Assembly (NCBI GenBank): GCA_963706795.1
Contig: OY970170.1
Location: forward strand, 390,001 to 422,000
Reading direction: 5' to 3'
Length of the DNA stretch: 32,000 nt
DNA from: Candidatus Saccharimonadota bacterium
GTDB taxonomy: Bacteria > Patescibacteriota > Gracilibacteria > BD1-5 > UBA2023
Both the position numbers and the translations under genes were made by a program. The notes under the pieces were generated by a model. That model was not told where the DNA came from and made no database searches. It worked only from the letters and a program-made list of their open reading frames with translations. Shown piece after piece: positions 1-32,000 of this stretch. The number at the start of each line of letters is the position of its first letter. The stretch's first letter is position 1.

Positions 1-511
1 CAACAATGCTTCCTGTTTTTGTAAGTAGTTTTTGTGCATGTGGAAGTACTTCTCGAAGCGAAATAAATGACACATCGATGGTAATAATCTCGAACAGTTC
101 GGGACTTTGCCATGTGCGAATATCAGTATTTTCGAGTGATGTAATCTTAGGATTTCATCTGAGCGATTCATGCAGTTGTGCTGATCACACGTCGAGCGCC
201 ACCACATGCTTCGCTCATTTTTCGAGAAGCACTTGAGTGAACCCCCCTGTAGAAGATCCGATATCGAGACAATGTTTCCCTGAGATATCTATAGGATATT
301 CCTCAAGAAATCCAGCAAGTTTCATAGCACTACGCGCCACATAGCGCAAACGAGGATCGTCTTTTACCTGAACTTCGTGCGTTTCGAGCACTTCAAAAGA
401 AGCTTTTTTTGTAGGCTTTCCATCGATAAAAACAAGCCCAGATTCGATTAAGAATTGGGCTCTATTACGAGAAAGTGTGAGTGATTGTGCAAGATACTGG
501 TCGAGTCGCAT
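1..511 (-). CDS. tlyA: TlyA-family rRNA 2'-O-methyltransferase (hemolysin A-like); C-terminal end lies beyond the window
   Basis: Track ORF 215..511 has an S4-like N-terminus (MRLDQYLAQSL...) and the SAM motif LDIGSSTGGFTQ. It stops at TGA 215-217, but the same frame stays open to position 2: [G]AKHVVALDV[G]SAQLHESLR[G]NPK...TIDVSFISL. In-frame TGA at 215, 185 and 155. Confidence 0.85.
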
Positions 512-537
512 GTGAAACTTCAGGGAAAGATAATACG

Positions 538-1401
538 CTATATTCGTGTCTTCATGAATTCCCTCAATTTAGGCCCCAGATCTTCTCTGGCAAGTGCATA
601 ATCAATCGTAGCCCTAAGAAATCCAAATTTATCACCCGTGTCATAGCGCATTCATTCGAGCTCAAGCCCGTAGATATCGCGATCTGCGAGCATGGCCATG
701 AAGGCATCCGCAAGGCGTTTTTCGTTGTCTTTACCACTTGACGCTTTTTCGATGTAATCAAAAATATCAGGAGTCAGAACGTATTTACCAATTACACCCA
801 GTCTCGAGCTTGTCTCGCTGGCTTTTGGTTTTTCAAGGAAGTGATCTACCTTATGGGCGCGTCATTCGGATGTTGTTGATTCGATGATTCCATAGCTCGA
901 AACCTGATCATCAGTCACTCGCTCGAGCGCTATAATTGGCGATTGTTTCTGATGAAAAGCCTCAATAAGTTGAGCAGCTCAAGGAACACTATGCGAGATG
1001 AGATCATCCCCAAAAAGCACCAAAAATGGCTCATTGCCAACAAAATGTCGTGCATACATAAGCGCATCCCCATCACCGCGAGGCAGGGGTTGGCGAACAT
1101 AGGCAATATTTGCAAGATTTGAAACCTTTTCGACTTCTGCCAACTCTTTAACTTTACCTTTTTCTACGAGCGTGTATTCGAGCTCAAATGATGTATCAAA
1201 GTGATCCTCAATGCTTCGCTTCCCGCGCCCTGTAACAATAACAATATCCGTAATACCCGAAGCAACAGCTTCTTCTACAAGATATTGGATTACCGGCTTA
1301 TCAACAATCGGCAGCATTTCTTTTGGCTGAGCCTTGGTAGCAGGCAAAAATCGTGTCCCGAACCCTGCGGCTGGGATGATGCATTTGGTGATTGGTTTCA
1401 T
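538..1401 (-). CDS. galU: UTP--glucose-1-phosphate uridylyltransferase
   Basis: N-terminus is [31 protein letters not shown]. Track ORF 979..1401 continues in frame through TGA at 979, 862 and 652 to TAG 538-540 (287 aa). LE[G][11 protein letters not shown] matches the conserved EGxRYDxGxKxG block of GalU/GtaB. Confidence 0.9.
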
Positions 1402-1434
1402 GAAATTTTTGCTTATGATAGATGACTTTTTGTT

Positions 1435-1908
1435 TTATCCAAGCTTCTTCTTATTTTGCTTTCGGTGGCAAATATAGAGAGTGCGATAGACATAAGTAGT
1501 CGACGCTAAAAGTAGCAATACACCAATTGTTCGAACTTCATAGCCAAAAAATGGCAAACTCGACATGAGCGAAGACAGTCCTAGATATGTCGCAATAGTA
1601 ACACTACATGCAGGACAACCAGTCACCAAAATTGAGAAAAAAGACCCTAAAATTCCTGCTCAATCTTTTTTTTCGAATCGAGTAAAATGGATAATTTTAT
1701 AGGTCGAGAGCCCAAAAAATATTGGCGCAAAAATCAGCGTCAGCACACTTAAAAAAATCTCATAGTAATAAGCAAAAGAGCCAAGATTACCAAGAGTAAG
1801 CGCGAAGTCAGAAAAAGTGTATTCGATATATCCAAACACCACGAGCATCAGAAGAGTCGGAATGACGAACGCTCGAGAGCGCAGAATACGAGAGAGATTA
1901 TTCGTCAT
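1435..1908 (-). CDS. small polytopic membrane protein with an intramembrane C-P-x-C motif
   Basis: Likely start is ATG 1906-1908 (MTNNLSRIL...). Track ORFs 1660..1977 and 1435..1629 join in frame across TGA 1660-1662. There are about 4 hydrophobic segments and LVTGCPACSV lies inside one. It overlaps the upstream gene by 11 nt. Confidence 0.6.
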
Positions 1909-2524
1909 GACCACCACAGGCTGCAGGATCTGGAAGACTATTCTGCTCATGTGCCGAAGATGGAACCATAGCAGCACGTGCTATTACCGCATCATTTGTC
2001 GCGTTTGAATAATCTATCAAGAGACGATCTTCGGATCGAATTTGAAGATTTTGAGGATTTTGAATGAACTTGCCATTGAGTACAAATCGCAGCTTTTTCT
2101 GAGCATCACTACGATACATTTTACCCGCATTATCCACAATATAATCGGCTCCAAAATTCCAACGTAAATTGCTCATGAGGTGACCCCATGCAGCGCCCGC
2201 ATCATGAACATGAAGCAGTCCGCCTTTGTTTTCATGGAGATGCACTCGATCCTGTGGGGTTTCTTTGTTAGGATCGACTGCACAACTAGCGAGTTCTTCC
2301 ATGTACTGATCACCATCAAAATTCACAAAGTCCTTATCAAGGAAGACGAGGAAATTAGCATGGTAATGGACTTTTGCCGTCGATCCAGAAGCAGAATGCG
2401 AATGTTCAGGAATGACAGAAGTCTGGGTTTTGTACCAAACGAGTGCCGAAATAACGAGAATGATATCAAGAATGATAAAGCAAGCAATAACGAGCTTGAT
2501 GCGAGATGGAGGAGTTGTAATCAT
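1898..2524 (-). CDS. membrane-anchored protein with histidine clusters, function unknown
   Basis: Intact track ORF of 208 aa. It has an N-terminal TM (IKLVIACFIILDIILVISALVWY), then HSHSASGSTAKVHYHANF and VHLHENKGGLLHVHDAG. I cannot name the family with certainty. Confidence 0.65.
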   Translation of the reverse strand: MITTPPSRIKLVIACFIILDIILVISALVWYKTQTSVIPEHSHSASGSTAKVHYHANFLVFLDKDFVNFDGDQYMEELASCAVDPNKETPQDRVHLHENKGGLLHVHDAGAAWGHLMSNLRWNFGADYIVDNAGKMYRSDAQKKLRFVLNGKFIQNPQNLQIRSEDRLLIDYSNATNDAVIARAAMVPSSAHEQNSLPDPAACGGHDE

Positions 2525-2533
2525 GCCCCCATA

Positions 2534-4684
2534 CTACGAAGCAAATCAGGCATCGCAAGTAGAATTACGCCTTCTCCCAACAAAATATCCACCCATTCAG
2601 ACTACAATAGCTAAAACTCACGCTGCGGCAGCTCGTCCAGCATTCGAAACTGCTCATGAATCTTGAGAGTTTTGAGCTTTATTTGAGGTAGTAGGCACAA
2701 TTTTTGAAGGAACTTTTTGTCTTGCAAGCAGCTTTGGTTTTTTGGCTGTGGCAACCTTTTTGGATTTCTTTTTAGTAGAGATCTTCGCCTTTTTAGAAGT
2801 CGTAAGTTTAGATTTTTTAGAAGTTGAAAGTCATTTTTCGGATTTTTCTGCTTTGGAAACCTTGCTCACCTTTGGATCTTTTTTTGTCTTTTTAGAAGTT
2901 TTTGCTCATGCCTCACCTGCAAAAAACTCAGATGACAAAAGCGCTGTACGTGAGGCTACAATTGGCTCAATAAAGCGATTTACTCACTGAAATACACGAT
3001 CAATAGGTTCTGGAATAATGCTCATGACTGATATTTTTGCCGTACGAGCGATCTCGGATTTTGAGGATTTCTTGGGAGCAGCTTCCGCGCTGCTTGCTAC
3101 AGATTTGGCGCGAATGGTAATAGTCCTCGCAATAACATTTTCGGGCTTTCCGTCTTCGGAGAGATTGAGTGTCACTTGATGATCACCTTCTGCAAATTCG
3201 ACAGAGCGCGGATTGCAACTGGTGAGACTTTTTTCATCGGTACTTCATCATTCGAATATCCAACTGCATCGCTCGTAGGCAAATTTTGGTATAAAAATAA
3301 AATTGACCCGACATGGACTCGAACGACACACAAGATCATCCGAAAGTCATGATTGTGCTGAAAAAATAGGATCTGAGAGCGATCTCGATGGGCCAAAATA
3401 GATTGTAGAAGAGGATGTTACTACACTCGATCCTCCGGATGCTGGGGCTGTTGGTGGCGCTATATAGGCAGTATTTTCAATAAACTCAGATGAGTAGGCA
3501 TGGAAGGATTTGGTGTAGGTAAGTGCTTCTGCATCTTTACCATTGAGATCCTTGAGCCCGAATCCTGAATACGTCTTGAGACGAATATGACTGCTTGTAG
3601 AAGTATTAATGTGGAGATCAAGATGCTCAATATCTCACTCAATAAGATCAATAATGAGTTCAGAGCCGGAAAGTGTAAGTGACTCGATAGCTCCTGTTGA
3701 GCTCTCAATTTTCGTACTCGCGAGACCACCAGTTCAAGAATACAAAACGATCTTACTTGCGTCGAGACTTCCTGTAAGTATGGCAGAATACTCGATAGTT
3801 AACCGATCGATTTTCCCATTGTCATCAGTGTCTTCAAGGATGAGTTTTTGGGCTTCGGTCGGAATAATAGATCCGGAATTTTGGATCACTGGAGGAATAG
3901 ACGATACGGAACCCGAGGAGATAGATGGCCCAGTCGACGAAATATTTGAGGATGGAAGTGTGCTGCCGGTTTGAGTGATGTTCACGCTTCACGTTGAGGA
4001 TTGAGATGCTCAAGTTGCAGTAACCCCTAGATCGGTAGCTCATGTCTGAGAGCTACCTCCATCCGTGAGTGATCAAGAAGCCGTCGAAAGGACAGCGCCA
4101 GTTGCATTTCAAGCGACACTACCCGTAGATGCAATAGATCAGGTGGATTCGAGGAGCGAACCGGAATTATTTTGGATAGGAACCACTGCTCAAGTATTTG
4201 AAGTCACTCATCCTGTCGAAGAGGTCGGTGGAGTGTCTATGCTTCCCGTCGCTGTGGGTATCGCAGGAACTGGTGGAATTTCAGGAATCGTTACGCATTG
4301 TGGAAGCACGTAGTGACCCGTCGAGAGCGATATATCTTTGGCACTTGTGGCATATGAGAACTGATCAATCAAAGCACCAGAGGCATCAAGGAGATCAATA
4401 CGTTCATCGGTATTATTGAGAATAATTTTTGATTCTGGTCGCATAACTCGCCGACGTTGTCATGAAGAAAGTGTACCAGAAAGCAAATAGGTCTTACCCG
4501 AAGCATCTCGAAGGATGTATCCTGTAATATCCATATCAAAACAGGTGATATCTGCAATCTCTATATATTCGAGATTAGCATCATCACTGGTATTGGGCAG
4601 GACTGCATCAATCACAATACCCGAAGTTGCAAACACCGTCAGTCCTCACAAGAGAAACAAGACAACAAAAAGCCAGCTTTTCAT
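2534..4684 (-). CDS. secreted lamin-tail-domain (LTD) surface protein with S/T/G-rich linker, beta-rich middle, Lys-rich tail and C-terminal TM anchor (716 aa)
   Basis: I translated the whole minus frame codon by codon. There is no TAA/TAG between ATG 4682-4684 and TAG 2534-2536, and 22 in-frame TGA. Signal peptide: MKSWLFVVLFLLGGLTVFA. LTD-like block: IVIDAVLPNTSDDANLEYIEIADIT...ILNNTDERIDLLDASGALIDQFSYA. C-terminus: AGRAAAAGVLAIVVGMGGYFVGRRRN. Track ORFs 4208..4444, 3734..3985 and 2984..3175 are fragments of it. An alternative ATG lies at 4688-4690. Confidence 0.8.
2740..2910 (-). repeat. coding low-complexity Lys/Ser/Thr repeat inside the LTD protein gene
   Basis: The + strand shows reiterated TTTTTAGAAG(T)-type units. 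The minus-frame translation is KTSKKTKKDPKVSKVSKAEKSEK[G]LSTSKKSKLTTSKKAKISTKKKSKK. Confidence 0.6.
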
Positions 4685-4739
4685 GTGCATTTTGTACACG
4701 CGAAAAGCTGGAAAAAAACGGAAAAGCGAGAGAAATTTA

Positions 4740-6683
4740 TTACACTGTTGCCTTCTTTGGGACTGCAATACCCTCAAAGAATGCATCAAATTCAGTTGCG
4801 AGGAGTTCTTCTTTTTGAAGAAGGACTTCGGCTACTGTTTGATGGATAGCATGGTACTCAGTAAGCACGACTCGAGCTCGCTCATAGGCGGAGAGTAGTA
4901 TAGCACGAACCTTTTCATCGATCTTTTCTTGAGTTTTGTCAGAGAAGATTTTTCCTCCTCCTTCACCGCCAAGATAGTTGCCTTCGATAGCGTCAGATGC
5001 GAAGTTTTCAGGTCCGAGTTCATCATCAAATCCATAGCGCATCACCATCGCACGAGCAATTTCAGTGGCATGCTCGATATCACTCGACGCACCTGTTGTA
5101 ATAAGGTCCTTACCAAAAAAGATTTCTTCAGCAACGCGTCCACCGTAGAGCGTAGCAAGCTCATCGAGGTATTTTGCTTTGGTGATATATGTACGGTCTT
5201 TTTCTGGGAGGAACCAAGTTACTCAACCAGCCCCACCACGTGGAATAATCGAGATTTTATGAACCGGATCATTATATGGAAGCATCTTTCCTACGATTGC
5301 GTGTCCGACTTCATGATAGGCAGTGATTTTTTTCTCGAGTTCGGTCATGCGGGACGATTTTTTTGTATTCCCCATGAGGACTTTTTCGATCGACTGCTGG
5401 ATCATTGCCTGTGAGAGCTCTTTTTGACCCATACGACCCGCGAGAATCGCTGATTCATTGAGGAGATTACCCAAATCAGCACCTGAGAATCCAATCGTTG
5501 ATGCGGCAATTTTTCGGAAATCTACATCCTTCGCCATAGGCTTCCCCTTAGCATGAACCTCAAGAATCTTGATACGGTCCTCAAGATTTGGGAGATTGAT
5601 CGTCACCTTGCGGTCAAATCGGCCTGGTCTCAGAAGTGCCTTATCTAGAACATCGGCACGATTGGTCGCTGCGAGGACGATCACGCTGGTCTCATTGTCG
5701 AATCCATCCATTTCTGTAAGGATCTGATTGAGTGTCTGCTCGCGTTCGTCATGACCTCCACCAATTCCAGGCGAACGCTTTTTACCAATGGCATCGATTT
5801 CGTCGATAAAGATGATCGAAGGCGAACGTTCCTTTGCTTCTTTGAAGAGATCTCGTACACGAGAAGCTCCTACTCCAACAAACATTTCTACAAATTCGGA
5901 ACCCGAAATTGAGAAAAATGGGACGTTAGATTCTCCAGCAACAGCACGAGCCAGAAGGGTTTTACCCGTTCCTGGAGGTCCAACCATGAGGATACCACGA
6001 GGGATTTTCGCTCAAAGATCCTTAAATTTCTTTGGATTTTTGAGGAAGTCGACAACTTCGGCGAGGTCTTCTTTTTCTTCTACTGATCCAGCAACATCGC
6101 CAAAAGTCACGCGGTCCTTACCTGGCTCATAGATGCGAGCTCGAGATTTAATAAATGCCATCGGTCCACCTCCACCACCACTCATACGAGAGACAACGAA
6201 GACAATCAACACCACAAATATGATCGTCATGACCACGCTCGGAAGCGAATCTACAAGGAATTTACCCCAAAAATCATCCTTCACACTGATCTTGGTAGGA
6301 TTTTTGATATCCGAAAACCCAAGATCCTTAAGGCTGTCCTTTGGAGGCAAGAGAATCTTGTCGACATCAACAACGCTTACGGTTTTTGCACCGATATTTT
6401 CGGTATGTGCGGGCTTTTTAGCATAGAGCGTATTCCCCTCTACAACGAGCTCCTGGTAAGAGCCGGAAAGATAATTAGTAACGACTTGGTTGATACCAAT
6501 TTTATCGTTGATATTCTCTTTTTGGCCACCGGCAAAATTTAAAAAAATTGCCGAAAGAACGATTGCTACCGCAAAAAGCACAAAGAGCGGATGAAGCTTT
6601 TTAGGTTTTTTGGGAGATTTTGTAGTGGCCTTCTTGATCATATCCATCATTTCTTCTTTGGATTTTTTAGGTTTTTTCGTCAT
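4740..6683 (-). CDS. ftsH: ATP-dependent zinc metalloprotease FtsH
   Basis: Track ORFs 6012..6683, 5223..5987 and 4740..5048 share one frame. Motifs: Walker A GPPGTGKT, Walker [33 protein letters not shown], zinc site HEVGHAIVG. The joins are TGA 6012 (FKDL[G]AKIPRG) and TGA 5223 (IIPRGGAG[G]VTWFLPE), both at Gly positions conserved in FtsH. Product is 647 aa. Confidence 0.95.
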
Positions 6684-6719
6684 GTCTACCGAATTTTATG
6701 AGTATTTGAGCGACGCTTC

Positions 6720-6747
6720 ATTCTAGAAAAAAGACTGAGAAATGCAA
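6720..6747 (-). promoter_or_regulatory. candidate sigma70-type promoter for ftsH
   Basis: The minus strand reads TTGCAT, then a 16-nt spacer, then TAGAAT. The -10 element ends about 37 nt upstream of the ftsH ATG (6683). Confidence 0.4.
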
Positions 6748-6784
6748 ATAGATGAGACTTTTTTATGAAAGAAGCGGAGAAATC

Positions 6785-6812
6785 TTGACAAGATCATTTT
6801 AACTCTTACAAA
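6785..6812 (+). promoter_or_regulatory. candidate promoter for the 6834 gene
   Basis: TTGACA (6785-6790), a 16-nt spacer, then TACAAA (6807-6812), about 20 nt upstream of ATG 6834. Confidence 0.35.
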
Positions 6813-6833
6813 GAAGAAAATTATTTCACACAT

Positions 6834-7280
6834 ATGACACGTTTTCTCCTCGCTCTCGTCGCCATTATTTCGGTTTTTGCCAATCTTGCGCCAGTCTCGG
6901 CACAGACAGATTTCTTTGAAGGCAATATCATCGGAAATGAGGCATTTACTACACGCATGGATGCCATCAAGATGAATAGTTACATCTTTCGGTCAGGTGC
7001 GCTCAATGACAAACTCGCACAAACGCGATATTTTCTCTCGAAGACTAAGCGAAATACTCTTGCAAATTTGGCAGATGGGACGATAACAAAGTACACGGCC
7101 GATGATGTTGCAGGATCTCTCGAGTACCTCACGCATTCGATGAATACATATTTTGCTAATATGAAGGCCTACGAACGTACTTCTCGCAAGATCTACAAGA
7201 CACTCGCTACTCAAAATCTGGGTGACGCCTCTGCCGTATATAACGAGCTCAAGGCCATCACTTGGAATTCTCTCAGGTAA
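6834..7280 (+). CDS. secreted hypothetical protein (148 aa)
   Basis: Intact track ORF with a signal peptide (MTRFLLALVAIISVFANLAPVSA/QT). The mature part looks helical. No family recognised. Confidence 0.7.
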   Translation: MTRFLLALVAIISVFANLAPVSAQTDFFEGNIIGNEAFTTRMDAIKMNSYIFRSGALNDKLAQTRYFLSKTKRNTLANLADGTITKYTADDVAGSLEYLTHSMNTYFANMKAYERTSRKIYKTLATQNLGDASAVYNELKAITWNSLR

Positions 7281-7286
7281 TCCACC

Positions 7287-8084
7287 ATGAACACTTTCGC
7301 CTCCTACCCTACTGACGAAAACACTCCAGATCAGATCAAACAAGATATCGCAGAAGCTCTCTCGATAGCATTTCCTGCAGAGCTCAGCTATGTAATGTTT
7401 GACCACAAAAAAGAGAATCAGATCTATTTTTTTGATCCAGGATTTAACGAAATTATCGATGTCGAAATTGGCATCAGAAAAACTCTTTGAGCAAACAAGA
7501 CGTGACCTCGGTACTGATATTTAGATATTCGGTTTGATGAAGCAGACTATACACTCTGCACGAGAGCGATTGATGTTCTTGTTAAATCATACAAAAACAT
7601 CAATGCATCTCGCATAACACAGGAAGTGGAACAAGTAGATGACGAATTCTCAAGTTTTGTAAAGAAAGTAGATGATGAGACCATAAAAGAGAACTTTTCT
7701 CACGGGCTCCCTGATATCATCACTTACACATACAGACTTCCCTGGAAAATTCCTCGAGAAAACGCACGGACCGGCCTACAAGAGATGCTGAGCATCCTCA
7801 TGGAAGAACTTATGCACCTCAGCGCCCCAGTAAGAGAGATGCAACTGAGTCAGGAAATCTATGTCAGTGGTAAAATCAAAGGTATTCAGTCCATTTTCAA
7901 TCACAAAACCGACCAAGAGCCAAGAGTATTGAGTGATCTATCAAAAACTCGTGCAGAGCACTATCAAGTACCCCTCGAGCAGGCAGAAATACGAGCAAAA
8001 GTTGAGGATATATTTGAGCACGGTGGCCCCGAAGAAGAAGAGGCCCGAAACGAACTCAAACGAATCTTCCAAACAAAAAAATAG
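7287..8084 (+). CDS. hypothetical acidic protein (265 aa)
   Basis: Track ORFs 7287..7490 and 7626..8084 are in the same frame. The interval has three TGA (7488, 7503, 7515) and no TAA/TAG. It starts 6 nt after the stop codon of the preceding gene. Confidence 0.65.
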
Positions 8085-8105
8085 TCCGATCGGACTATTT
8101 TTTTG
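8074..8105. terminator. bidirectional intrinsic terminator between convergent genes
   Basis: AAAAAAA-TAGTCC-GATC-GGACTA-TTTTTTT. It overlaps the stop codons of the 7287 gene and of der. Confidence 0.7.
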
Positions 8106-9585: not shown

Positions 9586-9586
9586 A

Positions 9587-10891
9587 CTAACGGGTTATTT
9601 TGCGAATTTTAATGTCTTCTATTTTGCCATCTGCTACGTGCTGCACCTGGAGTGAAATCAGGATTTTTCCTGAACCAATGGTAAGGGTTTCTTTCGGATC
9701 AGGAAATCTTTCGAGAAGCGAGATAATAACATAAGACACCGTCTCTCCAAGAAATGTTTCGTCGAGTCCAATATCTGTGATATTTGCGATATCGAATTCT
9801 TCGAGTACATCGTCGATGAGCACTCAGCCATTGACGAGCATGGTGCCATCGGAGAGTTTTTTCATGTATTCTGCTTCTCGGTCTTTTTCGTCTTTGATAT
9901 CACCAAATACTTCTTCGACGATGTCTTCCATAGTGATAACTCCTGCGACTCCACCGTGTTCGTCAATGACGAGCGCGATGTGCTTATGTGAGCGTTGGAA
10001 GACCTCAAACACAGAATCTATCGGCTTGGTAACGGGCACCTTGATGATTTTTTCGAGCTCGAGACTACAAAGAAGTGCGTCTCCAAGACCAGCTTTGTGC
10101 CATTCGAGGACTTCTCGTAGAGTAACGACATGATCAATATTGTCCGTGGTTTCGCGATAGACGGGCAATCGCGAATGACTCGAACTCAGGAATATATCGA
10201 GCGCTTCATTCACGGTCGTGTCACAGGCAATGAACTCAACATGCACGCGTGGCGTCATTACTGAGGAAGCATCCGTCTCGGAGAGATCGAGGATATTTTT
10301 AATCTTGCGGTGCTCGTCGTCTTCTACCGCTCATTTTTCTCGTGAGAGATCGATGAAGGCAATGAGTTCTTCGAGAGAAATCGATGGCCCATGGATATCA
10401 CCCTTCCCGCCCGTCAAAAAATTTAGAAGTCTGACGAAGAATTCGATCAAAAAATTAAGCGGCCGAAATATAAACAAAAGAAGCTGATAAATCGGTGCAA
10501 CAAGTAGTGCGGTCTTGTCAGTAAATCGTACTCAGAGAATCTTTGGCGCGATCTCACCAAAGAGCAGTATCACGGTTGAAGCAATAAAGATCGCTCATCC
10601 AACTGCCTGATCCCCCGAAAACCCAAACTTCGTCGCAAACTGGATCGCGACCACCGTGGAAATCGACGATATCGCTATCGTTACCACCGTAGTACCGATC
10701 AGGTTTACGATGAGGAGGCGCTCATTATTTTTTTTAATCTCCGATAGATTTTGTGCTCCAAATCTCTTCTCGCGCAGAAATCCTGCAAGCTTATGAGTTG
10801 AGACCGACATGAGAGGAATCTCTGTTCCCGCAAAAAATGCGAGCAGTCCAAGCAAAATAAGAAAAGAGAGAATGGTGGACACGAGGTCCAT
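9587..10891 (-). CDS. HlyC/CorC-family transporter-associated protein (DUF21 TM domain + CBS pair + CorC_HlyC)
   Basis: Track ORFs 10595..10954, 9824..10258 and 9587..9823 share a frame. TGA at 10595, 10532, 10331 and 9824. Likely start is MDLVSTILSFLILLG (ATG 10889-10891). The TAG stop is 1 nt from the der ATG. Confidence 0.85.
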
Positions 10892-11014: not shown

Positions 11015-11021
11015 GACGACG

Positions 11022-11913: not shown

Positions 11914-12372
11914 ATGGAACTTTTAAAATTCAATCGCGAAGCGCAAAAAATAGAATGTACGCCCGAAGGCGTAGCAGATGCTGTTGCACAACTCGGTGGC
12001 CCAGCCCAGGAAGCAAAAAATGCGCTTGCGAATTGCAATGCAAATATTCAAAAACAGACCGAAGGAATGCGCGTCGGAAATGCTGAATATCGCGGTATTT
12101 TAGACCGAAGACTCCAAGGAAATCAAACAGAACTCGCAGGACTCTTAGGACTCAACTCAGTCAAGGCTGCACTCGATAAAAAGGAATTCGCTGGCGCAAT
12201 GACTCGCGTCTGAAATGAAGCCACAGCAAATGTTGCTGCCGAAAAAGTACGTGATCTCAAACATCAGCAAGAACGTGTAGCTGCGGCAAAAGCAGGAATA
12301 GCCCAACAAACAGCAGATAACGCAGATGCCACTAAAATCAGCAAGGATTTCCAATATATCAAAATACGCTAA
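11914..12372 (+). CDS. hypothetical helical protein (152 aa)
   Basis: ATG 11914 (MELLKFNREAQK...) is 1 nt after the upstream stop. The frame reads through TGA 12211-12213 to TAA 12370-12372. Confidence 0.6.
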
Positions 12373-12408: not shown

Positions 12409-13101
12409 ATGACTCCTGAACTCTTCGATGCACATCAAGAAACCCCTAAAACCACTTCCGAAACGAGCGGTATTCAGGGGCTTCTTATTAAATATAGATA
12501 CGCCGTACATGCATTGTTATGAGGTGGGGCAATAGTACTATGATTCTGAGCCGGAAATTTAGCTGCGGAATACTCTGCAAAGCACCATGAGGAGCAACGA
12601 TTTTGGCAACAGCAAGTACAAAATGCAGCAATGCTCGAAGAGCTCAAAACTCTGATGATCGAATCCTCTCTGCAGTGAGATAGTGATAATAAGGGAATTC
12701 TCTGAGCGATCGCCTTCAAGCAAAAAGCAGCGGACGCCAAGAAAATTGAAGAAACACTTAAGCGAGCACATGAGCTTGAAAAAATCGTTATAGCCGCTGT
12801 TTGACCAGATGGAGATTATTCCAAGGCAGCCTTCAGGGATTTTAGTTTTCCAGCAGAAAACATAAATACTACGAGCGAAACAGCAAAAGCCGCTGCTGAA
12901 AAAGCAAAAACCGCGATGCTTGAGCTCTACAATCTCAGAAATGCGCATACCAAAGCTCTTACATCTGACATGATAGCAAAGCAAGGAAGCTCATTTATCA
13001 TAGATTTTTGAGCAGACAAAGAGGAAGACCAATACTACATCAAGAGAATATATCTCAGCCCGCCTGATAAAGAGCAGTCGGCAAAAACAAGTAACGGGTA
13101 A
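12409..13101 (+). CDS. hypothetical single-pass membrane / coiled-coil protein (230 aa); not in the ORF track
   Basis: Translated codon by codon from ATG 12409 to TAA 13099-13101, with 7 in-frame TGA and no TAA/TAG. The TM segment is HALL[G]GGAIVL[G]F[G]AGNLAA. The rest is charged and helical. Confidence 0.65.
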
Positions 13102-14208: not shown

Positions 14209-14688
14209 ATGTCAATAATTCTCGGAATCGACCCTGGGACAACCACTGTAGGATTCTGAGTACTGGAAGTTGTGGGCAATAAACGAAATATTCTCAACTT
14301 TGGAGTTATTCACACCACTCCCAAGCTCGATGCTCATCTCAAACTTCTTGATATTGAGCGCGATCTGAGCGAGCTCATAGAGATGTACAAACCAAGCGCT
14401 TGTGGGATCGAAAAACTCTTCTTTTTTAAAAATCAAAAGACCGTTATTGATGTGGCGCAAAGCCGTGGTGTACTCATCCATACCATCGCCAAACACGGAA
14501 TCCCAATCTACGAATACACTCCCCTGCAAGTCAAAAAAGGCATCTGTGGAAATGGTGTCGCTACAAAACTCCAGGTCCAAAACGCACTCAAAATCCTCTT
14601 TGGACTGAATGAAATCCCAAAGCCCGATGACGCTGCTGATGCACTCGCTATCGCCTATATCACGAGCCTCGCTCGCCCAAAAATGTAA
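14209..14688 (+). CDS. ruvC: crossover junction endodeoxyribonuclease RuvC
   Basis: Track ORF 14272..14688 extends upstream through TGA 14257-14259 to ATG 14209: MSIILGIDPGTTTVGF[G]VLE, the conserved RuvC N-terminus with its catalytic Asp. The C-terminal part has DDAADALAIAY. Confidence 0.9.
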
Positions 14689-17571: not shown

Positions 17572-18747
17572 TTACACCGTATAACTCACACTCTTTTCTT
17601 CCCTAGATTTTTGCTGGAAGGATTTCGTACCAGCAATGAGTCCAAATGATAAAAATGAGAGAAGTGCTGAAAGCTCGTATAGGACAGGTATTCTGTAAAA
17701 TGGTCGAGTCTTAATAGTCGCCATTCAGAGAGCAATTGGCAGGAGCGCAATAGTAAGGATTGGATCAAAAAAGCCATAAAAATATGCTGCAACTGCCACC
17801 AAAATAGTGAGCACCATTCCCTGTCCGATAGCGAGCACATAGGGACTTTTGCCAGGCACAAAGAATCGAACGATATAAATAAGATTGATGAATGGCACAT
17901 AAATCAGATACGGCGAGAATGGCCCCGTAGGTCCATCAAAAAAGGCTACGAGCTGTGCTTCTGTCGCATTATCCAACTGCTCTCGCTCGATGAGTCGTGC
18001 ATGAAAATTGAGATGGTCCTTTTTGCCAACAACTGCTGACATCACATCTCTCAAATAGATCGGAATCGTACGCATAACTCTCGCAATTCATTCAAGTGAA
18101 GGAATCCAGTAAAAAAACGAGAGAAATTCTACGCTCTTCCCCAAAAACAAGAGACTTGCGACACTCACCAAGAGTACAACAAAAAAGAAGAGAATCGAGA
18201 GAATCGTACTCTCACCTCTCGAAAACACAAAGAGAAATACGAGTAAAATACTCATCAGGCCAGAGATTCGAACCCCTACTCGTGTAAGTGGAGTCTGGAG
18301 ATGTTCATAGATGAACGGGCCGATAAATGGCACAAATGAGAGAATACTTCGGATCATTTCAGATTCGTTTTGGACGTACACTCCATTGAGACTCTCAGAA
18401 GTCAGTCCAAGATCAAACGAAAATATTCCCGTCGAGTCTCTACCAGCAAAGGCTCGAGATGCCCCGATGAACAACAAGGTGAAGATGTATGCAAAAACCA
18501 TGATGATCAAGATTCGATCAATCCGGATTGGTAAAAATGGCAGTGTGATAGCCAGGAGTCTGGACAAAAATATCTGGTGCAAAAAGATATATCCTATGAA
18601 CAAGAGATGCAACTTGGTCGCCGACTTTGCGTGAGAGCGAACAAATGGCTCAGAAAAATTGGGGTTTTTTCGTGCCAGCAAGAAGAGAAAACCGAGAAAA
18701 AAGTAGCTGATTGCCGCATTTGTGCGGACTTTTTGTGAAATTTCCAT
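17572..18747 (-). CDS. polytopic membrane protein (391 aa), N-terminal DUF4870-like segment
   Basis: Track ORFs 18088..18747 and 17725..18075 share a frame. TGA 18088 and TGA 17725 are read through to TAA 17572-17574. The N-terminus NAAISYFFLGFLFLLARKN...FVRSHAKSA resembles the DUF4870-type pattern from memory. Confidence 0.65.
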
Positions 18748-19851: not shown

Positions 19852-20223
19852 ATGTTTACAACCAAAGAGTCTGATAAAAAAAAATCTGAAGTTTTTGAGA
19901 TTTGCGATCGCTCATTCTATTGTCCCGTTGTTCTGGCGCTCAGTGTACTCTGAGGCAAATGGAAGATGCCCCTCCTCTGGCATCTCATCAACGAACCCGT
20001 GATGCGCTACGGCGACATCAAACGAAGCCTCGGGAAAGTTACGGACAAAATGCTCATCCAGTCACTGCGAGAACTCGAGGCTGATGGTATTGTCATCCGT
20101 TCTGTCGAAGCAACCGTCCCACCAAAGGTCTCCTATAGCCTCACTGAACACGGCAAAGAGATTAAAGGAATTATTACTCAACTCAATGCTTTTGGTATGA
20201 AATACAAGAAGACTGAGGTATAA
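19852..20223 (+). CDS. HxlR-family winged-helix transcriptional regulator
   Basis: Track ORF 19966..20223 extends through TGA 19951-19953 to ATG 19852: CPVVLALSVL[G]GKWKMPLLWHL matches the HxlR signature (I/L)GGKWK. PPKVSYSLTEHG lies in the wing. It is divergent from the nitroreductase gene. Confidence 0.85.
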
Positions 20224-20303: not shown

Positions 20304-20870
20304 ATGAGTTTTCTCAACCAATGGATCAAAAGCGATCCAAAAAATGCACAGATTTTTTTGAGCATAGCACCAGCAATAGCATGCCTCATCCTGCATTTTA
20401 CAGAAGCAGGAAGGCCATATCTGTTTTTAGGTATGACCGTCTGCCTAATCCACGGAATATTTTGGGGTGAATATATTGCAAGTATCACAACCGACACCGT
20501 GATACACCCCAATCAAAAGGGCATCAAGGTAAAACAAACTGATGGCGCGAGCGTATATTATCTTCGCACCATCAGCACCGAAGCTGCCGCATCCTCACCA
20601 GTCTCCAAGTACTATTTGGTAATGAGTCTGGTCTGGGCAGGATGGATAGCCCTTTATACCTACTGGCTACCATTCAAAATGATCACTTCAATGGTGGTCG
20701 AATTGGTATCTCCGCTCATTGTATTCGCACTGCACTATCACCTGATAGGCGCATTCATAAAGTTTTACCAGAATCCTCCAACCATCAAGGCTAAAGGCAT
20801 ACCGGCAGACCATGTCGAAAAAGAAGTTTTTGTAGAAAGAAGAAGGAAATGACTTATTTTAAAGGGGTAA
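20304..20870 (+). CDS. hypothetical polytopic membrane protein (188 aa)
   Basis: The track ORF reads through TGA 20850-20852 for 5 more codons to TAA 20868-20870. A strong SD, AAGGAGG, lies at 20289-20296. Confidence 0.65.
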
Positions 20871-20923: not shown

Positions 20924-21559
20924 CTATGTCTTATATCCTTGAGCTATCATAATTCAGAGGAGTTTGTTTATGAGCTTCTTCTGAAGATGCACATTTTCAA
21001 AACCTGCATTCTCGAAGAGATGTACGAGCTTTGATGAGGTCATGCTCCCAATATGTCATTTTTCTAGTAGTTTATAGGTGATATCCATACATTTTGTGAG
21101 TATGTAATCATTACAAAACTCCTCAAGCACCAGCGTACCTCCTATATCTAAAAGAGCGTACATCTGTGCAATGGCAGCTGCCTGATCATCAAAATGATGG
21201 AAGGCATTTGAAGTCACTATGGCATCGAATGTAATATCTTGCAAATCAAAGACAGTACCATGAACCACTTCAATATTTTGGTATTTGCTCGTTGATATCT
21301 TTTTCTGAGCTTCGCGTACCATTTCTTGAGAGATATCTATACCGACAATCCTGCCAGATCATTCAAGGAGTTCAGCTAGATCTAAGAGCCCAGTACCGCT
21401 TCCACATCCAACGTCCAATATGGTCATTCATTTTTTGATGCCTAACTGCTCTATTGTTAGTTGCTGGATCGGACGCTGAAAATTTCGCACAATAAGTGAT
21501 GAGTCATACTCACTTGCAAGCGAATTAAAGGTTTTTTGTGTATGAGCAGTTGGATCCAT
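20924..21559 (-). CDS. class I SAM-dependent methyltransferase (211 aa)
   Basis: Track ORFs 21428..21613 and 21056..21322 share a frame. TGA at 21428, 21359, 21056 and 20954. Motif I reads KK[G]MTILDVGCGSGTG. The likely start is MDPTAHTQ (ATG 21557-21559). TAG stop at 20924-20926. Confidence 0.8.
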
Positions 21560-24648: not shown

Positions 24649-24652
24649 TATT

Positions 24653-24685
24653 AAAAACTCCCCGATCACTCGGGGAGTTTTTTTA
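24653..24685. terminator. bidirectional intrinsic terminator
   Basis: AAAAA-CTCCCCGA-TCAC-TCGGGGAG-TTTTTTT. The stop of the convergent 24683 gene lies in the T-run. Confidence 0.75.
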
Positions 24686-25426
24686 TGCCAAGAAAGTAAT
24701 TCAGGTACTTGCTGATTCCTCAACATGTTCTATGAGCGTGGAATTTATTCCATCAAAGAATGTAGCTCTCTTAATTGTATCAGCCTGGAGAAGTGCGAGT
24801 ATTTGATTGCGAAATATCTGCCCCTCTCCAATTTCTCAAAGCACATTTTGCATTGCTGCATGCATTTCTCGATCCTTTAGATGTTCTGTATGAATTGTCT
24901 TATGTGGGGTATTATTCTTGTGCGACATTCCGTTGATCATACAGTAGATATTTTTTGGGCGAAATAGCTCACAGATATCTCCAATAACATCTGTATCTTT
25001 CGCAAGTATGAGCGGGGTAATTCATGCATCGAGCACGGCATCCACCTGGTTTTTAAAATTCCGAACCTGTTCTGCAATTCAACTACTCACGGACATATCT
25101 GGAAAATATGTATTTCAAAGCCGGATATGTGCATCTGAAAAAATCTTTCCCCAGTATTTAAACTGTTCGATTTCACCGACTGCCCTATTTACAAGTTCTC
25201 CGTTGCGGATTTGCTGTGATTCTTTTTTTTCCATGAGCTGTTCGTCTATGCGAGCAGCTCACTCAACTACAAATATAACTTTGTGGCGAGTATTGCCTGA
25301 TATGACTTGGATATTTTCTGCAAGTGCTTGATGTTCTCGAACATTTTCCTTTATACGAAGATTTGGACTAACAGCAGGAACATGGACAACAAGATAGTCA
25401 TGCATGTGACTGATTTTCTTAGACAT
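24683..25426 (-). CDS. hypothetical protein (247 aa); absent from the ORF track
   Basis: I checked every minus-frame triplet from ATG 25424-25426 to TAA 24683-24685. There is no TAA/TAG, and 6 TGA (25259, 25115, 25079, 25022, 24836, 24701). Begins MSKKISHMHDYLVVHVPAVSPNLRIKENV...VIFVVE[G]AARIDEQ. No family recognised. Confidence 0.65.
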
Positions 25427-25484: not shown

Positions 25485-25510
25485 AAAAAAGAGCCCGAAG
25501 GCTCTTTTTA
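25485..25510. terminator. intrinsic terminator downstream of lysS
   Basis: AAAAAA-GAGCC-CGAA-GGCTC-TTTTT. The lysS TAA (25508-25510) abuts it. Confidence 0.7.
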
Positions 25511-27073
25511 TATTTCATTCCTTGGTCGCATCAGCGGAAACAGCGTCACATCACGGAGATTATTCTGCTCAGTGAGGAAGGCTACGAGGCGATCAACACC
25601 CATTCCCCATCCTGAGATAGGTGGCATGCCGTATTCCATGGCTTTTATAAATTCGGCGTCGCCGGTCATGGCTTCTTCGTCTCATTCTGCTGCGGCTTTT
25701 TCACCGGCGACAAATCGTTCTGCTTGGTCAATGGGATCAACGAGCTCAGAATACGAATTAATGAGTTCCCATCCATTGATTACGAGCTGGAAGGCATCCG
25801 CATGCTCAGGGTTGCTGTCATTGCGACGAGCAAACGGCTTAAGCTGGATTGGATAATTGTAAAGGAAGGTTGGGTTGATGATCTTTGGACGTGACATCTT
25901 TTTGTAGAGATAGTCGATGAGTGTTGTAAGCCCCATCTTGTCCATTCCTTCGATCTCGATCCCCTGCCCAGCAATATCCGCGCGGAGCTTCTCGACATCG
26001 GTGTACGTACTCACATCAAGTCCAGTGTCCGCCTTTACGAGCTCGATGTAATCGACTTTTGCCCATGGCGTAGTGAAGTCTACATCGACGAGTTCATCAT
26101 GCTTGTTGAGGATTTTTCGCTGACGATCCAGATCGAGTGTATCAAAGATGTAATCAAACATCTTTTCTGTGAAGGCGATATTGTCGCGGAAGGTCCAATA
26201 GTTCGCATTGTGTTCGAGATGCGTGTGTTCTGGAAGATGTGATGGATCCTGGCCCTCGTTGCGGAATGCTTTGCCGAGCTCAAAAATCTTTTCCATTCCG
26301 GCGATATTCATGAGCTTGAGCGGGATTTCGTGAGAAATTCGGAGAAAAACATCCACATCGAGTGCATTTTGATGTGTTAAGTATGGCTTAGAAGCGGCAC
26401 CCGTAGCAGCATTGGTGAGGACTTGACCTTCGATTTCAGTGAAGCCTTCTGACCAATAAAATTCACGAAGCGTGCGAATAAGATCAGAGCGAAATTTAAA
26501 TCGCTTCATCGCGCTCTCATCGGTAATCAGATCGAGATACCGCTCACGATATTTGAGCTCACTGTCCGCAATTCCATGGAATTTTTCGGGCAGTGGACGA
26601 AGTGACTTCCCGAGGAAAGTAAACTCTGAGACGAATACTGTGAGCTCTCCTTTGTGTGTGCGGAATAATTCACCCTCGATACCAATAAAATCACCAAGAT
26701 CGAGGAGTTTTTCGACAAATTTAAATGCCGAAATCGGTTCACCATTTTCGATAACTGAATCATGAAGCTCTCAGTCTATTCGGATCTTGCAGTTTTCTTT
26801 GGCGAACATGATTTGGATGCGACCGGTATCATCCTGCAAATGTGCGAATGCAATCTTACCAAACGAACGAAAAAGGACGATGCGTCCCGCAGTCGAGGTA
26901 TCAAGACTTGGTGCAGCGAGGACAGTTTCTACCTCACGAAAATCCCCTGATCGTGCAAGGATGCTCGAAACAGTGTGTTTTTTCGCATATGTCTGAGGAT
27001 AGACCTGAACTCCCATCTTTCGCATGCGCTCCAATTTGGAGAGTCGCATATTCATTTCTTCATTTCCTGCCAT
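25508..27073 (-). CDS. lysS: lysine--tRNA ligase (class II)
   Basis: Track ORFs 26771..27172 and 25682..26509 plus a C-terminal piece share one frame. TGA 26771, and TGA 25682 at AAE[G]DEEAM (conserved GDDEAM). OB-fold: [26 protein letters not shown]. Motifs FRNEG and GWGMGVDRL. The start is probably [19 protein letters not shown] (ATG 27071-27073) and is uncertain by a few codons. Confidence 0.9.
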
Positions 27074-27107
27074 TTGTCGCTTTGATACGGGTAAAAAACG
27101 AGTTTTC

Positions 27108-27135
27108 ATCGTAGCAAATCGCGGGCGAAAGTCAA
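27108..27135 (-). promoter_or_regulatory. candidate promoter for lysS
   Basis: The minus strand reads TTGACT (27135-27130), a 16-nt spacer, then TACGAT (27113-27108). This argues against the longer track start at 27172. Confidence 0.4.
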
Positions 27136-27873: not shown

Positions 27874-29853
27874 ATGAAAAAAAGCCTCCTCGTTCTCACT
27901 TGATGTTTAATGCTTATTTGATCATCAGATCAGTTATTTGCAGCATCAGATTTTGGCTATCCGTTCAATCAGATTTCCAAAACTACCTGCAAGCGTCAGG
28001 CCTGGAGCGAGCTGGGAGAAGACTGTAAAATGCCACTTCCACGGATCGTGTGAGCCGATTACGCAAAATACAAAAATGATACTACCTATCGTCGCATCTA
28101 TAGCGTGCTTTGGGGTGCAACCTATGACTATGGTTGGGATAGTGGATTTGGAAGTCATCAGGGAGTCGATATTGCGACTTCGGAATGAACTCCTGTCATC
28201 GCCATCGGAGAATGAACGGTCGTCACTGCAGGCAATGTTAGTGGTTGGGGAAATACCGTAACGATCAAACATACGCTCGTAGACAAAACTGTCATCTACT
28301 CAAACTACTCTCACCTCTCGAAAATCGACATCAAAAAAGGTGATATTGTCACCAAATGACAAACCATCGGAGGCGTTGGAAATACCGGAAATTCGTATGG
28401 AAATCATCTTCATTTTCAGATCGATATTACTCCCCAGAGTCATCCATACTACTATTTTACGTGCGCCAAATGAGTAGACGAACTCAAGGCTGTAAATAAG
28501 GGACTATGTCGCGATGATCTCACAAAAAATACGATCGATCCGATTGTATTCCTCGAGACGGGCAATCTTGCGACCGTGCCACCAACACAAGGAACCATCG
28601 ATCAAATCAAAGAGAAGCCACCGGTCATCATCAATCCAAATAGCATCGAATCTCGACAAAAAATCATCGACGACGAAGCGGCAGAATACCTCCAAAGATT
28701 TACCATCGACATAGCCATCGCACCGGATGGACTCAATCTCGAAGCCGGTAAAAGCATCACCACAAATCTCTCTGTCCGAGATCCAAACGGCAAGGCGCCA
28801 AAAGGTAATCTCCCCGAAGCCGGACTCAAGATCAGCTTTGATAAGAAGGCGCTCACAGTCTTCCCTGAGAGCATTATTGCACTCGATGGTGGAACTCGCG
28901 ATTTTACCATCATCGCGAACAAAACTGGAACCTACGATATTACCTTTTCACTCGGCAAAACCGTCCTCGGAAAACGTACAATATATGTAGTCAAAAAGGG
29001 TGAAAAACTCGAACCCGAGAGCGTTGAGATCCGTGTCGCAAAGACGCTGAATCTTGCCTCCGAATCCAACCTCTTCATAGTTCCAAAAACCAAGTTTGGC
29101 TCATATTTGACCGATACACCATATCAAACTCGATACAAGATCAATATCCTCAAAGGTAAGGCAAAATTCTGCAATCTCTCAAAGAGTAATTCTGAAGTCT
29201 GTAATCCTCTGTTAGTAGCAGAACAGATCGAATTTGGATATAATGACAGCTTCCGCGGGTATTTTAAAGGCAAGATTGTTGCGCTCGATTCAGAGCCCAT
29301 AGTCTTTACCGTAACAAAGCTCGGGCAAAAAACTGAGACAAAGAGTCGCACGATCACCGTCAAGCCTCCAACTGGACTCGATAAGCGTAATATTTACTAC
29401 GACGCAATCCTCTCTGGACTCAAGCGCAATTGGTGGAAAACAATGGGTGGCTATGCGTACGAAGCTAAAGAGATGACTACCTCAGATACCGTAGAGATGC
29501 TCAAGCGTGTACTCTCATATCGTGTTCTTAAAGCCGGTGGTGACAAGCTCAAACGAGCTGGTGCTATGAATCTCTTAGGGGTCTTCATCAATCAAACAAA
29601 AAATCTCCCTGATCAAAAATGGACGCGCGGAAGCTTCTCAAAACTCCTACTCCAGAGTGTGGGGACTGGGCTCATTAAAAATAAGACGAGCGTCTTGATG
29701 GACGAGCAGTGAGACTACAAAGACGTCATTACGACACTTCGAATGAAATATAGCTTTGCATGGCTCGATCAATTTGCGGCTCGATATTTCCAGCCAGACA
29801 AAAATATCACTGTAGGAGAAGCGCTGTATATGGTTGATGTGGTGAATAGGTAA
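27874..29853 (+). CDS. M23/LytM-family metallopeptidase lipoprotein with a long C-terminal extension (659 aa)
   Basis: ATG 27874 gives MKKSLLVLT[G]CLMLI, where the lipobox L-T-G-C has its Gly encoded by TGA 27901. The catalytic half is missing from the track: GSHQGVDIATSE[G]TPVIAIGE[G]TVV...NHLHFQID. It joins track ORF 28576..29712 in frame and reads through TGA 29710 to TAA 29851-29853. There are 8 TGA in total. Confidence 0.85.
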
Positions 29854-30083: not shown

Positions 30084-30234
30084 CACCCGCATGAACTGAA
30101 CCAATCACTCTCGGTCTCGCAACGGAAAAATTGATTTAAATCAACTCCCCAAGGAGGAAGACCTCGCAAGAGCCGTTTTTGAGGCCGAATTAAAAGCCGA
30201 GTCATGTGCTGGATGAAGTCATGGGACGCAGATA

Positions 30235-30729
30235 ATGTCAGGTAAAAGTCTAAATGCTCGGATATCTGCCTATAAAGATGCTTTCGCGAGCGGAGAGATA
30301 CAAAAAACCTACCAAAATTTGGTCGCTATTGTTCAAAATCTTAGAACTGATTTTTTCAAAACGTATATAGGTGAGTACTCAGTAACAAGCGTACTGCATG
30401 GCTATATAGATTTCACTTATTTTTATCTACAAAATGACTACCTCAAAAAGCGCAAGCTTAAGCTAGCTATCGTACTTAATCACCATCAAGCACACTTTGA
30501 GCTTTGGCTACTTGGACAAACAAAGGATGTTCAGATTAGTTACTGGGAAAAATTGAAAGGTGTGAAGTGGGTAAACGAAAATACAATGCCAGAATGGTCA
30601 ATTTTCGAAATAGTAATGCTTACCGAGCTTGATTTTGACGATCCTAAAAAGCTAACAGAATCTCTTCATGGTTCATTTAGAGTTCTTTCAAAAGATATTT
30701 TTGACACACTCGCAGCATATGAGCGTTAG
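30235..30729 (+). CDS. hypothetical protein (164 aa; up to 212 aa if it starts at 30091)
   Basis: Intact track ORF (MSGKSLNARISAYKDAFASGEIQKTYQNL...FELWLLGQTKDVQISYWEKL). The frame is also open upstream to ATG 30091, through 2 TGA. Confidence 0.65.
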   Translation: MSGKSLNARISAYKDAFASGEIQKTYQNLVAIVQNLRTDFFKTYIGEYSVTSVLHGYIDFTYFYLQNDYLKKRKLKLAIVLNHHQAHFELWLLGQTKDVQISYWEKLKGVKWVNENTMPEWSIFEIVMLTELDFDDPKKLTESLHGSFRVLSKDIFDTLAAYER

Positions 30730-30860
30730 AGCAAAACAGGTGGCTTAGATTGATTCGTTATTTCTACCTGTAGAAATAGTCTTCTGGTCTAGAGTCTTGC
30801 AAAATACTTGCCCCACATCCAGATAGATGAACGAATAGGATAGAGGATTTTAGATTTCGA

Positions 30861-30891
30861 AAGAAAAAAGGCCTAATACAGGCCTTTTTTC
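30861..30891 (-). terminator. intrinsic terminator overlapping the uvrB stop codon
   Basis: The minus strand reads AAAAAAGGCCT-GTATT-AGGCCTTTTTT. The TAG (30873-30875) sits in the loop/stem. Confidence 0.65.
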
Positions 30892-32000
30892 TTTCTGCGG
30901 AGTTCAATGAGCACATCTCGGATTTCACCCGCTCGTTCAAAGTCGAGATTGGAAGCGGCGACGTCCATTTCGAGTTCGAATCGTTTGATTTGAGTCTCGA
31001 GTTTTTCGCCGGTTGTTTCGGCAAGATCATCGGTTTTTTTACCTTTGAGGCTGAGCTCTTTGATTGACGAGATGATTGTTGTAGGAGTAATACCATGCTC
31101 GAGATTGTAGCTATGCTGGATTTCACGACGTCGATTTGTTTCACCAATAGCATCTACCATCGCAGCAGAGAGCTTCTTTTGATGAGAATACATCACTACC
31201 TTTCCATTTGAGTTACGCGCGGCACGACCGACGATCTGTAGAAGAGCTGAGGTGGATCGCAAAAATCCGATCTTTTCGGCATCCAAAATCGCAATGAACG
31301 AAACTTCTGGTAGGTCGAGACCTTCTCGTAGAAGATTAACTCCAACGATTACTTCGATTTTTCCGAGACGCAGATCACGAAGGATTTCGAGGCGTTCGAT
31401 GGTTTCGATTTCGGAGTGGAGATAGCGGACTTTGATCCCGTTGCCTGCTAGATATTCTGCAAGTTCTTCACTCGATTTTTTGGTGAGCGTGGTAATAAGC
31501 GCACGTTCATCTCTCGCTCGTGTCTCGACAAGATGTTGCATGATAGAGTCAACCATGTGCTCCATGTCCTCAATCTCAATGATCGGATCAAGAAGTCCCG
31601 TCGGTCGGATAATCTGTTCAAATATCCCACATTCCTGGGCGGCTTCGTATTTGGATGGAGTTGCAGAAACAAAGACAGCCTGGCCGATTTTTTGCTCAAA
31701 TTCTGGGAATTGTAGAGGGCGATTTTCGAGTGCAGACGGGAGACGGAATCCATATTCGACGAGATTCATCTTGCGAGAACGGTCACCTGCATACATTCCG
31801 CCAATCTGAGGAATCGTAATATGCGACTCATCGATAAAAGTGAGATAGTCCTTTGGGAAGAAATCTAAAAGCGTACTTGGCGTCATACCAGGACTTCGTC
31901 TGGAGAGATACATCGAGTAGTTCTCGACCCCATTTACATATCCAACTTCTTGGAGCATTTCGAGATCATATTCGGTCTTCATTTTGATGCGCTCAGCTTC
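30873..32000 (-). CDS. uvrB: excinuclease ABC subunit B (C-terminal ~375 aa; N-terminus beyond the window)
   Basis: Helicase C-terminal motifs (LREGLDLPEVSFIAILDAEKIGFLRS, QIVGRAARN) and the C-terminal UVR domain (LEMDVAASNLDFERAGEIRDVLIEL). The frame is open to the window edge. Confidence 0.93.
   Translation of the reverse strand, partial: EAERIKMKTEYDLEMLQEVGYVNGVENYSMYLSRRSPGMTPSTLLDFFPKDYLTFIDESHITIPQIGGMYAGDRSRKMNLVEYGFRLPSALENRPLQFPEFEQKIGQAVFVSATPSKYEAAQECGIFEQIIRPTGLLDPIIEIEDMEHMVDSIMQHLVETRARDERALITTLTKKSSEELAEYLAGNGIKVRYLHSEIETIERLEILRDLRLGKIEVIVGVNLLREGLDLPEVSFIAILDAEKIGFLRSTSALLQIVGRAARNSNGKVVMYSHQKKLSAAMVDAIGETNRRREIQHSYNLEHGITPTTIISSIKELSLKGKKTDDLAETTGEKLETQIKRFELEMDVAASNLDFERAGEIRDVLIELRRKKKGLY

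Follow-up and report, generated by a model that had tools for sequence, protein, structure and literature searches.

A 32-kb genome segment of Gracilibacteria type with in-frame UGA at glycine positions, as in genetic code 25

Does UGA end translation in the genome that gave rise to contig OY970170.1 (assembly GCA_963706795.1, Candidatus Saccharimonadota bacterium) and, if it does not, which amino acid does it specify? The question is raised by a stretch of 32,000 bp of this contig (positions 390,001 to 422,000, forward strand; hereafter the window; guanine plus cytosine (GC) content 43.7%), in which recognizable genes, among them the one encoding FtsH, are interrupted by TGA under NCBI translation table 11. 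A preliminary description of the window, based on its letters and a list of open reading frames (ORFs), had proposed that UGA is a glycine codon here. We are highly confident that the window follows NCBI genetic code 25, in which UGA specifies glycine, termination is confined to UAA and UAG and all other codons keep their standard meaning; it probably stems from a member of the Gracilibacteria/Absconditabacteria. At the level of sequence, UGA lies in frame within conserved genes, falls on glycine columns and interchanges with GGN codons in relatives. Code 25 in this setting is known biology and not a novelty; its importance here is for annotation.

In-frame TGA in the genes of the window

The table-11 ORF list supplied with the window was broken in the way that the preliminary description had claimed, with single genes split at TGA into pieces that share one reading frame; FtsH, for instance, was cut into 6012..6683, 5223..5987 and 4740..5048. 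The ten TGAs cited there as examples were all found at their exact coordinates, in frame and in the peptide context given for them. When one greedy gene caller was applied under four stop-codon hypotheses, table 11 gave a coding density of 59.6% with a median gene of 114 amino acids (aa), and treating TGA as a sense codon gave 82.8% and 216 aa. The gain was specific to TGA, since controls in which TAG (58.6%, 113 aa) or TAA (59.4%, 123.5 aa) was made a sense codon had no effect.

ORF length is nevertheless a poor guide by itself. With TGA as a sense codon, ORFs of 100 aa or more number 161 in the window, roughly threefold its coding capacity, and long spurious antisense ORFs arise, such as one at 22522-24729 on the minus strand, antisense to EF-G, which runs to 736 aa with 16 TGA and 24 TGG codons. 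As length alone over-calls, we built the case on homology. In a genome of 44% GC, a caller that simply took the longest ORF under table 25 would predict too many genes.

We then built a gene model that was scored by codon usage, allowed no overlaps and stopped only at TAA or TAG, and refined it by hand. The refined model comprises 33 protein genes and three transfer RNAs (tRNAs), which together cover 91% of the window. It contains 71 in-frame TGAs in 9630 codons, distributed over 18 of the 33 genes, in good agreement with the earlier hand count of roughly 70, and not a single in-frame TAA or TAG. Each of the 32 genes that end within the window does so at TAA or TAG, as had been described, the gene for the TlyA-type protein leaving the window at its edge. 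No gene of the model requires TGA as a stop, which follows in part from the construction of the model itself; the C-termini of FtsH, LysRS, RuvC, GalU and HxlR do agree with the lengths of their homologues. In a first-pass model of 27 genes, TGA counts were 66 in frame 0, 129 in frame 1 and 356 in frame 2, and TAA and TAG were both absent from frame 0.

A Pfam scan of the joined ORFs placed at least 22 TGA sites inside domain envelopes. Matches span TGAs in the TlyA/FtsJ protein, GalU, the Lamin-tail-domain (LTD) protein, FtsH and the CNNM/CBS/CorC transporter, as well as in RuvC, the HxlR-family regulator, the S-adenosylmethionine (SAM) methyltransferase, lysyl-tRNA synthetase (LysRS) and the M23 peptidase. 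The predicted signal peptide of the last of these, MKKSLLVLTxCLMLIxSS, has two TGAs within it (x). Genes without any TGA encode EF-G, alanyl-tRNA synthetase (AlaRS), Der, UvrB, a nitroreductase and an HD protein.

Residues facing TGA in solved structures and in relatives

Homologues with solved structures, which come from standard-code organisms, could be aligned at 14 TGA sites (Table 1). Ten of these sites are invariant glycine, two are mixed columns that include glycine, two are variable columns without glycine, and none is tryptophan. For the M23 peptidase, a structure search returned no match at E <= 1e-14, and alignments were obtained with a shorter query at 1e-9. The preliminary description had placed its ten examples on conserved glycines. 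This held for eight of them, which occupy invariant glycine columns of solved homologues and include FtsH 6012 and 5223, RuvC 14257 and LysRS 25682; M23 site 28186 is instead a mixed G/N column, and methyltransferase site 21428 could only be placed inside a Pfam match.

An FtsH-anchored scan of GTDB species representatives, from which the source itself is absent, yielded 80 loci. The best FtsH matches, at 81-51% identity, were metagenome-assembled genomes (MAGs) labelled Patescibacteria group, Candidatus Gracilibacteria and, in some cases, Peribacteria. Most of these relatives carry in-frame TGA, and table 11 leaves essentially no long ORFs in those of low GC content. In-frame TGA is absent from relatives below 50% FtsH identity, i.e., Saccharibacteria and others, and this absence sets the limit of the recoded clade. 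The window is also syntenic, over 16 genes in positions 1-17517, with JBMOJK010000001.1 (locus L002). Judged by its FtsH relatives, the source probably belongs to the Gracilibacteria/Absconditabacteria radiation within the candidate phyla radiation (CPR; Patescibacteria), in keeping with the lineage proposed from the letters alone.

To compare codons directly, ORFs of the relatives were translated with TGA as X and aligned to the window proteins. Among 291 pairs from the 80 loci, a window TGA stood opposite Gly in 153, TGA in 56, Ala in 14, Trp in 1 and Cys in 1; Gly or TGA thus accounted for 209 of 291 pairs, against a background Gly frequency of 8%. In the reverse direction, 942 pairs had a TGA in the relative, and the window residue was Gly in 657 of them and Trp in two. 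FtsH site 6012 is G in 59, TGA in 20 and Q in 1 of the 80 relatives, and site 5223 is G in 57 and TGA in 23. In the five closest relatives (n=95), the codon opposite a window TGA was GGN 39 times, TGA 11 times and TGG once. Structure alignments and alignments with relatives therefore agree with the earlier proposal that UGA is a sense codon for Gly and not for Trp.

The FtsH proteins of the relatives also show how the two kinds of codon trade places. The sum of TGA and Gly codons is roughly constant (~44-61, mostly 50-57), and the share of TGA ranges from 0% at 45-59% GC to 88% at ~25% GC or less (r = -0.87 versus GC), with up to 45 UGA codons in FtsH alone in low-GC relatives. A constant sum with a shifting TGA share is, in these sequences, the signature of synonymy between TGA and GGN.

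Other codons kept their usual meaning when one vote was taken per conserved column. TGG voted Trp in all seven of its columns, in line with the preliminary description, CGA voted Arg in 24 of 26 and CGG voted Arg in its only column, and all remaining codons voted their standard meaning. CGA is an abundant Arg codon in the window (12.7 per 1000). The votes speak against an Absconditabacteria-type reassignment of CGA/CGG to Trp; the window shares only the UGA-to-Gly change with the extended code that Codetta predicts for Absconditabacteria, in which UGA is Gly and CGA/CGG are Trp (PMC8629427). The reading of CGA and CGG as Arg points to the Gracilibacteria (BD1-5) side and not to the Absconditabacterales.

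Decoding and alternative readings

By analogy with the lineage, UGA would be read by a dedicated tRNA-Gly with anticodon UCA that retains the glycyl-tRNA synthetase identity set G1:C72, C2:G71, G3:C70 and U73; release factor 2 (RF2) would have been lost, abolishing termination at UGA, and RF1 would handle UAA and UAG. A tRNA(UCA) was found in two of the relatives, at 21287-21365 of L033 and at 12119-12197 of L042. The former lies 16 nt upstream of a tRNA-Gly(GCC) (neighbouring coordinates 21381-21457), and the latter follows a tRNA-Phe (neighbouring coordinates 11996-12070) and is ~400 bp downstream of ftsH. Both carry G1:C72, C2:G71, G3:C70 and U73, together with an acceptor stem of 7 bp and a short variable loop, exactly the features by which Codetta called tRNA-Gly(UCA) (PMC8629427). 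The 7-bp acceptor stem and short variable arm rule out a tRNA-Sec identity; the label 'tRNA-SeC' that ARAGORN assigns to both derives from the anticodon alone.

Several observations weigh against glycine as the meaning of UGA in the window. The two FtsH sites, along with sequences that are phylogenetically related, dominate the pairwise tallies, for which reason the column vote was also taken for TGA. Across 15 conserved columns it gave Gly in 7, Ala in 4, Ser in 1, another residue in 3 and Trp in none, so that the per-column majority is modest outside the well-conserved enzymes. Poorly conserved TGA sites face Ala, Ser, Thr and other residues in the relatives. Nor did we find a tRNA-Gly(UCA) gene in the window or in ~9 kb of flank added from same-organism Logan contigs (sample ERR12037365; L001, L082, L083 and L084), a flank that contains no tRNA of any kind. 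Neither prfA nor prfB lies within the 32-kb window.

UGA is also used unevenly. It makes up 7.4 per 1000 codons and ~11% of the Gly codons in the window, with 11 TGA versus 297 GGN codons in nine core genes and 60 versus 298 in the remaining genes (Fisher p = 1e-8; core-gene coordinates compared: 4740-6683, 8095-9585, 15538-17517, 22504-24648, 25508-27109 and 30873-32000). The densest gene is that for the LTD surface protein, whose 21 TGAs represent 36% of its Gly-type codons, and in two hypothetical proteins TGA reaches 40-44% of Gly codons. UGA is thus avoided in core genes, to near exclusion in those for translation and repair, and is frequent in surface and hypothetical proteins that evolve fast. 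The skew is most simply read as translational selection against a rare codon. There is a slim chance that UGA in this GC-richer subclade is not fully neutral and is decoded slowly or ambiguously, with Gly read-through set against residual termination or misreading as Trp; if this were true, UGA could serve as an intrinsic brake on the expression of surface proteins that evolve fast.

We regard as very unlikely an incomplete or ambiguous reassignment, in which a suppressor-like tRNA would read UGA as Gly while RF2 is kept and some termination or attenuation persists. The rarity of UGA and its strong avoidance in core genes would fit such a state, as would two genes with a TGA shortly ahead of the terminal TAA or TAG, i.e., at 20850 (six codons, membrane protein at 20304-20870) and 2546 (four codons, LTD protein). 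Nowhere else would TGA as a stop be harmless. Two genes with TGA within their last six codons compare, however, with ~1.4 expected by chance, and the essential single-copy FtsH, LysRS and RuvC need UGA to be read through in order to function. The UGA load of FtsH in low-GC relatives is incompatible with competing termination there, and RF2 loss is given as a hallmark of reassignments of this kind (gTranslate preprint).

Code 4, in which UGA specifies Trp as in Mycoplasmatales and several insect endosymbionts, accounts for the in-frame TGAs, the TAA/TAG-only gene ends and the jump in coding density as well as code 25 does, and the persistence of TGG as Trp is compatible with it too. Table 4 (Mycoplasmatales, Hodgkinia, Zinderia, Nasuia and others) is likewise a stop-to-sense change of UGA, and it shares with code 25 the reported hallmarks of a small genome, RF2 loss and a tRNA with anticodon UCA (gTranslate preprint). 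The two differ in the residue inserted, and here the window speaks for Gly: Trp was met once opposite a window TGA and twice opposite a TGA of the relatives, no conserved column voted for it, and the invariant glycines found at ten of the structure-aligned sites include motif glycines of RuvC, TlyA, HxlR and M23. The nearest relatives, moreover, are MAGs of Gracilibacteria type and not Mycoplasmatales. We therefore consider code 4 extremely improbable.

Pseudogenes, sequencing errors or selenocysteine have a negligible probability as the explanation of the interruptions in spite of the many genes that look truncated under table 11, as all 71 are TGA, with no TAA or TAG and no frameshift needed, the same FtsH sites are TGA in 20 and 23 of 80 independent relatives, and the assembly that Logan made independently from ERR12037365 shows no difference from the window in the overlaps checked (L083, L084). 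Selenocysteine was rejected on the single Cys among the 291 pairs and on the spread of the sites over 18 unrelated genes; a load of 71 such sites in 32 kb would have no precedent.

Code 25 is established for Absconditabacteria/Gracilibacteria (GTDB class JAEDAM01) over a GC range of 0.21-0.53 (PMC8629427; gTranslate preprint), and proteomics of a BD1-5 population found 97 peptides unique to a UGA-Gly database, three unique to UGA-Trp and none unique to UGA-stop (PMC4032931). The window resembles the known cases in its in-frame UGA on Gly columns, its use of UAA and UAG as the only stops, TGG as Trp, its neighbourhood of Gracilibacteria-labelled MAGs, the Gly identity elements of the relatives' tRNA(UCA) and its GC content of 0.44. 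It shows no difference in kind; among the Gly codons UGA is a minor one here, whereas it accounts for 60-88% in the FtsH of low-GC relatives.

Annotation and gene content of the window

The significance of code 25 for this window is practical rather than conceptual. Table-11 calls are wrong for 18 of its 33 genes and cut FtsH, LysRS, GalU, the CNNM transporter and the M23 peptidase into pieces, and all downstream reading of the window needs table 25. In public table-11 calls on the ERR12037365 contigs, the CNNM gene falls into pieces of 98, 144 and 78 aa, RuvC is cut short at 138 aa and FtsH is broken into three. Full-length FtsH and RuvC, with either Gly or Trp at TGA, were not present in the protein collection searched, which indicates that the gene calls of that collection use table 11. 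The label of the closest relatives is no more than 'Patescibacteria group bacterium', and automatic assignment of a table by taxonomy is reported to fail on such records (gTranslate preprint).

The 18 genes with in-frame TGA are listed in Table 1. The LTD protein has an S/T/G-rich region and a C-terminal anchor, with homologues in L002, L003, L005 and L006. The Pfam matches of the SAM methyltransferase are Methyltransf_31 (41-186) and Methyltransf_23 (28-192).

Table 1. Genes of the window that contain in-frame TGA, with the residues found at TGA sites in homologues of solved structure
Product	Coordinates	Strand	In-frame TGA	Support and remarks	Residue in solved structures
TlyA-type ribosomal RNA methyltransferase	2..511	-	215, 185, 155	Pfam FtsJ + S4; 3' end cut by window edge	215 and 185, invariant Gly in TlyA structures; 155, N/S
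GalU (UTP-glucose-1-phosphate uridylyltransferase)	538..1401	-	979, 862, 652	Pfam NTP_transferase 7-264 spans all three	979, A/V; 862, G/D; 652, Gly
Hypothetical membrane protein	1435..1908	-	1660	ORF and translation	
LTD surface protein	2534..4636	-	21 sites	Pfam LTD match	
FtsH	4740..6683	-	6012, 5223	Pfam AAA + M41	Gly at both (E. coli and T. maritima FtsH)
Hypothetical secreted protein	6765..7280	+	6786	Homologues in relatives	
Hypothetical protein	7287..8084	+	7488, 7503, 7515	No family match	
CNNM/CorC-type transporter	9587..10891	-	10595, 10532, 10331, 9824	Pfam CNNM, CBS and CorC_HlyC span sites	
Hypothetical protein	11914..12372	+	12211	Homologue in L002	
Hypothetical protein	12409..13101	+	12520, 12541, 12547, 12676, 12703, 12802, 13009 (7)	L002 homologue, 31% identity	
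RuvC	14209..14688	+	14257	Pfam RuvC match 4-149	Gly, 4/4 structures shown
Hypothetical multi-pass membrane protein	17572..18747	-	18088, 17725	Three pieces in public table-11 calls	
HxlR-family regulator	19852..20223	+	19951	Pfam HxlR	Gly, 4/4 structures shown
Hypothetical membrane protein	20304..20870	+	20850	TGA six codons ahead of TAA	
Class I SAM methyltransferase	20924..21559	-	21428, 21359, 21056, 20954	Pfam matches span 3/4 sites	
Hypothetical protein	24683..25426	-	6 sites	No family match; model rests on coding score only	
LysRS	25508..27109	-	26771, 25682	Pfam tRNA-synt_2 + OB-fold	25682, Gly, 3/3 structures; 26771, in unaligned insertion
Secreted M23 peptidase	27874..29853	+	27901, 27919, 28051, 28186, 28213, 28357, 28471, 29710 (8)	Pfam M23	28186, G/N; 28213 and 28357, Gly, 3/3 structures

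Ten predicted proteins had no Pfam or NCBIfam match (11081-14162, and also 1898-2524, 6765-8084, 24683-25426 and 17572-18747). Several of them are conserved in L002, the closest relative, at 31-87% identity, which identifies them as lineage-specific genes and not noise. No tandem repeats were found in the window. Beyond its right edge, by ~3-4.5 kb, L084 carries a gene for a T2SSF protein, i.e., a type II secretion/type IV pilus platform protein (8689-9891), as a single ORF joined by one TGA, which table 11 divides into 307 + 85 aa; a TraC-like gene lies ~2 kb past the left edge (L083 9975-10700).

The AlaRS encoded at 15538-17517 (+) is short, at 659 aa, and Pfam detected only its catalytic and second additional (tRNA_SAD) domains and not the C-Ala domain. 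An Rfam gathering scan of the window returned three tRNAs only, namely a tRNA-Arg(CCU) and two tRNA-Met(CAU). The two tRNA(CAU) genes are 52 nt apart (21675-21749 and 21802-21876, both on the minus strand); the first has a C1·A72 mismatch and is initiator-like, and the second resembles an elongator tRNA-Met, or perhaps the precursor of a tRNA-Ile2.

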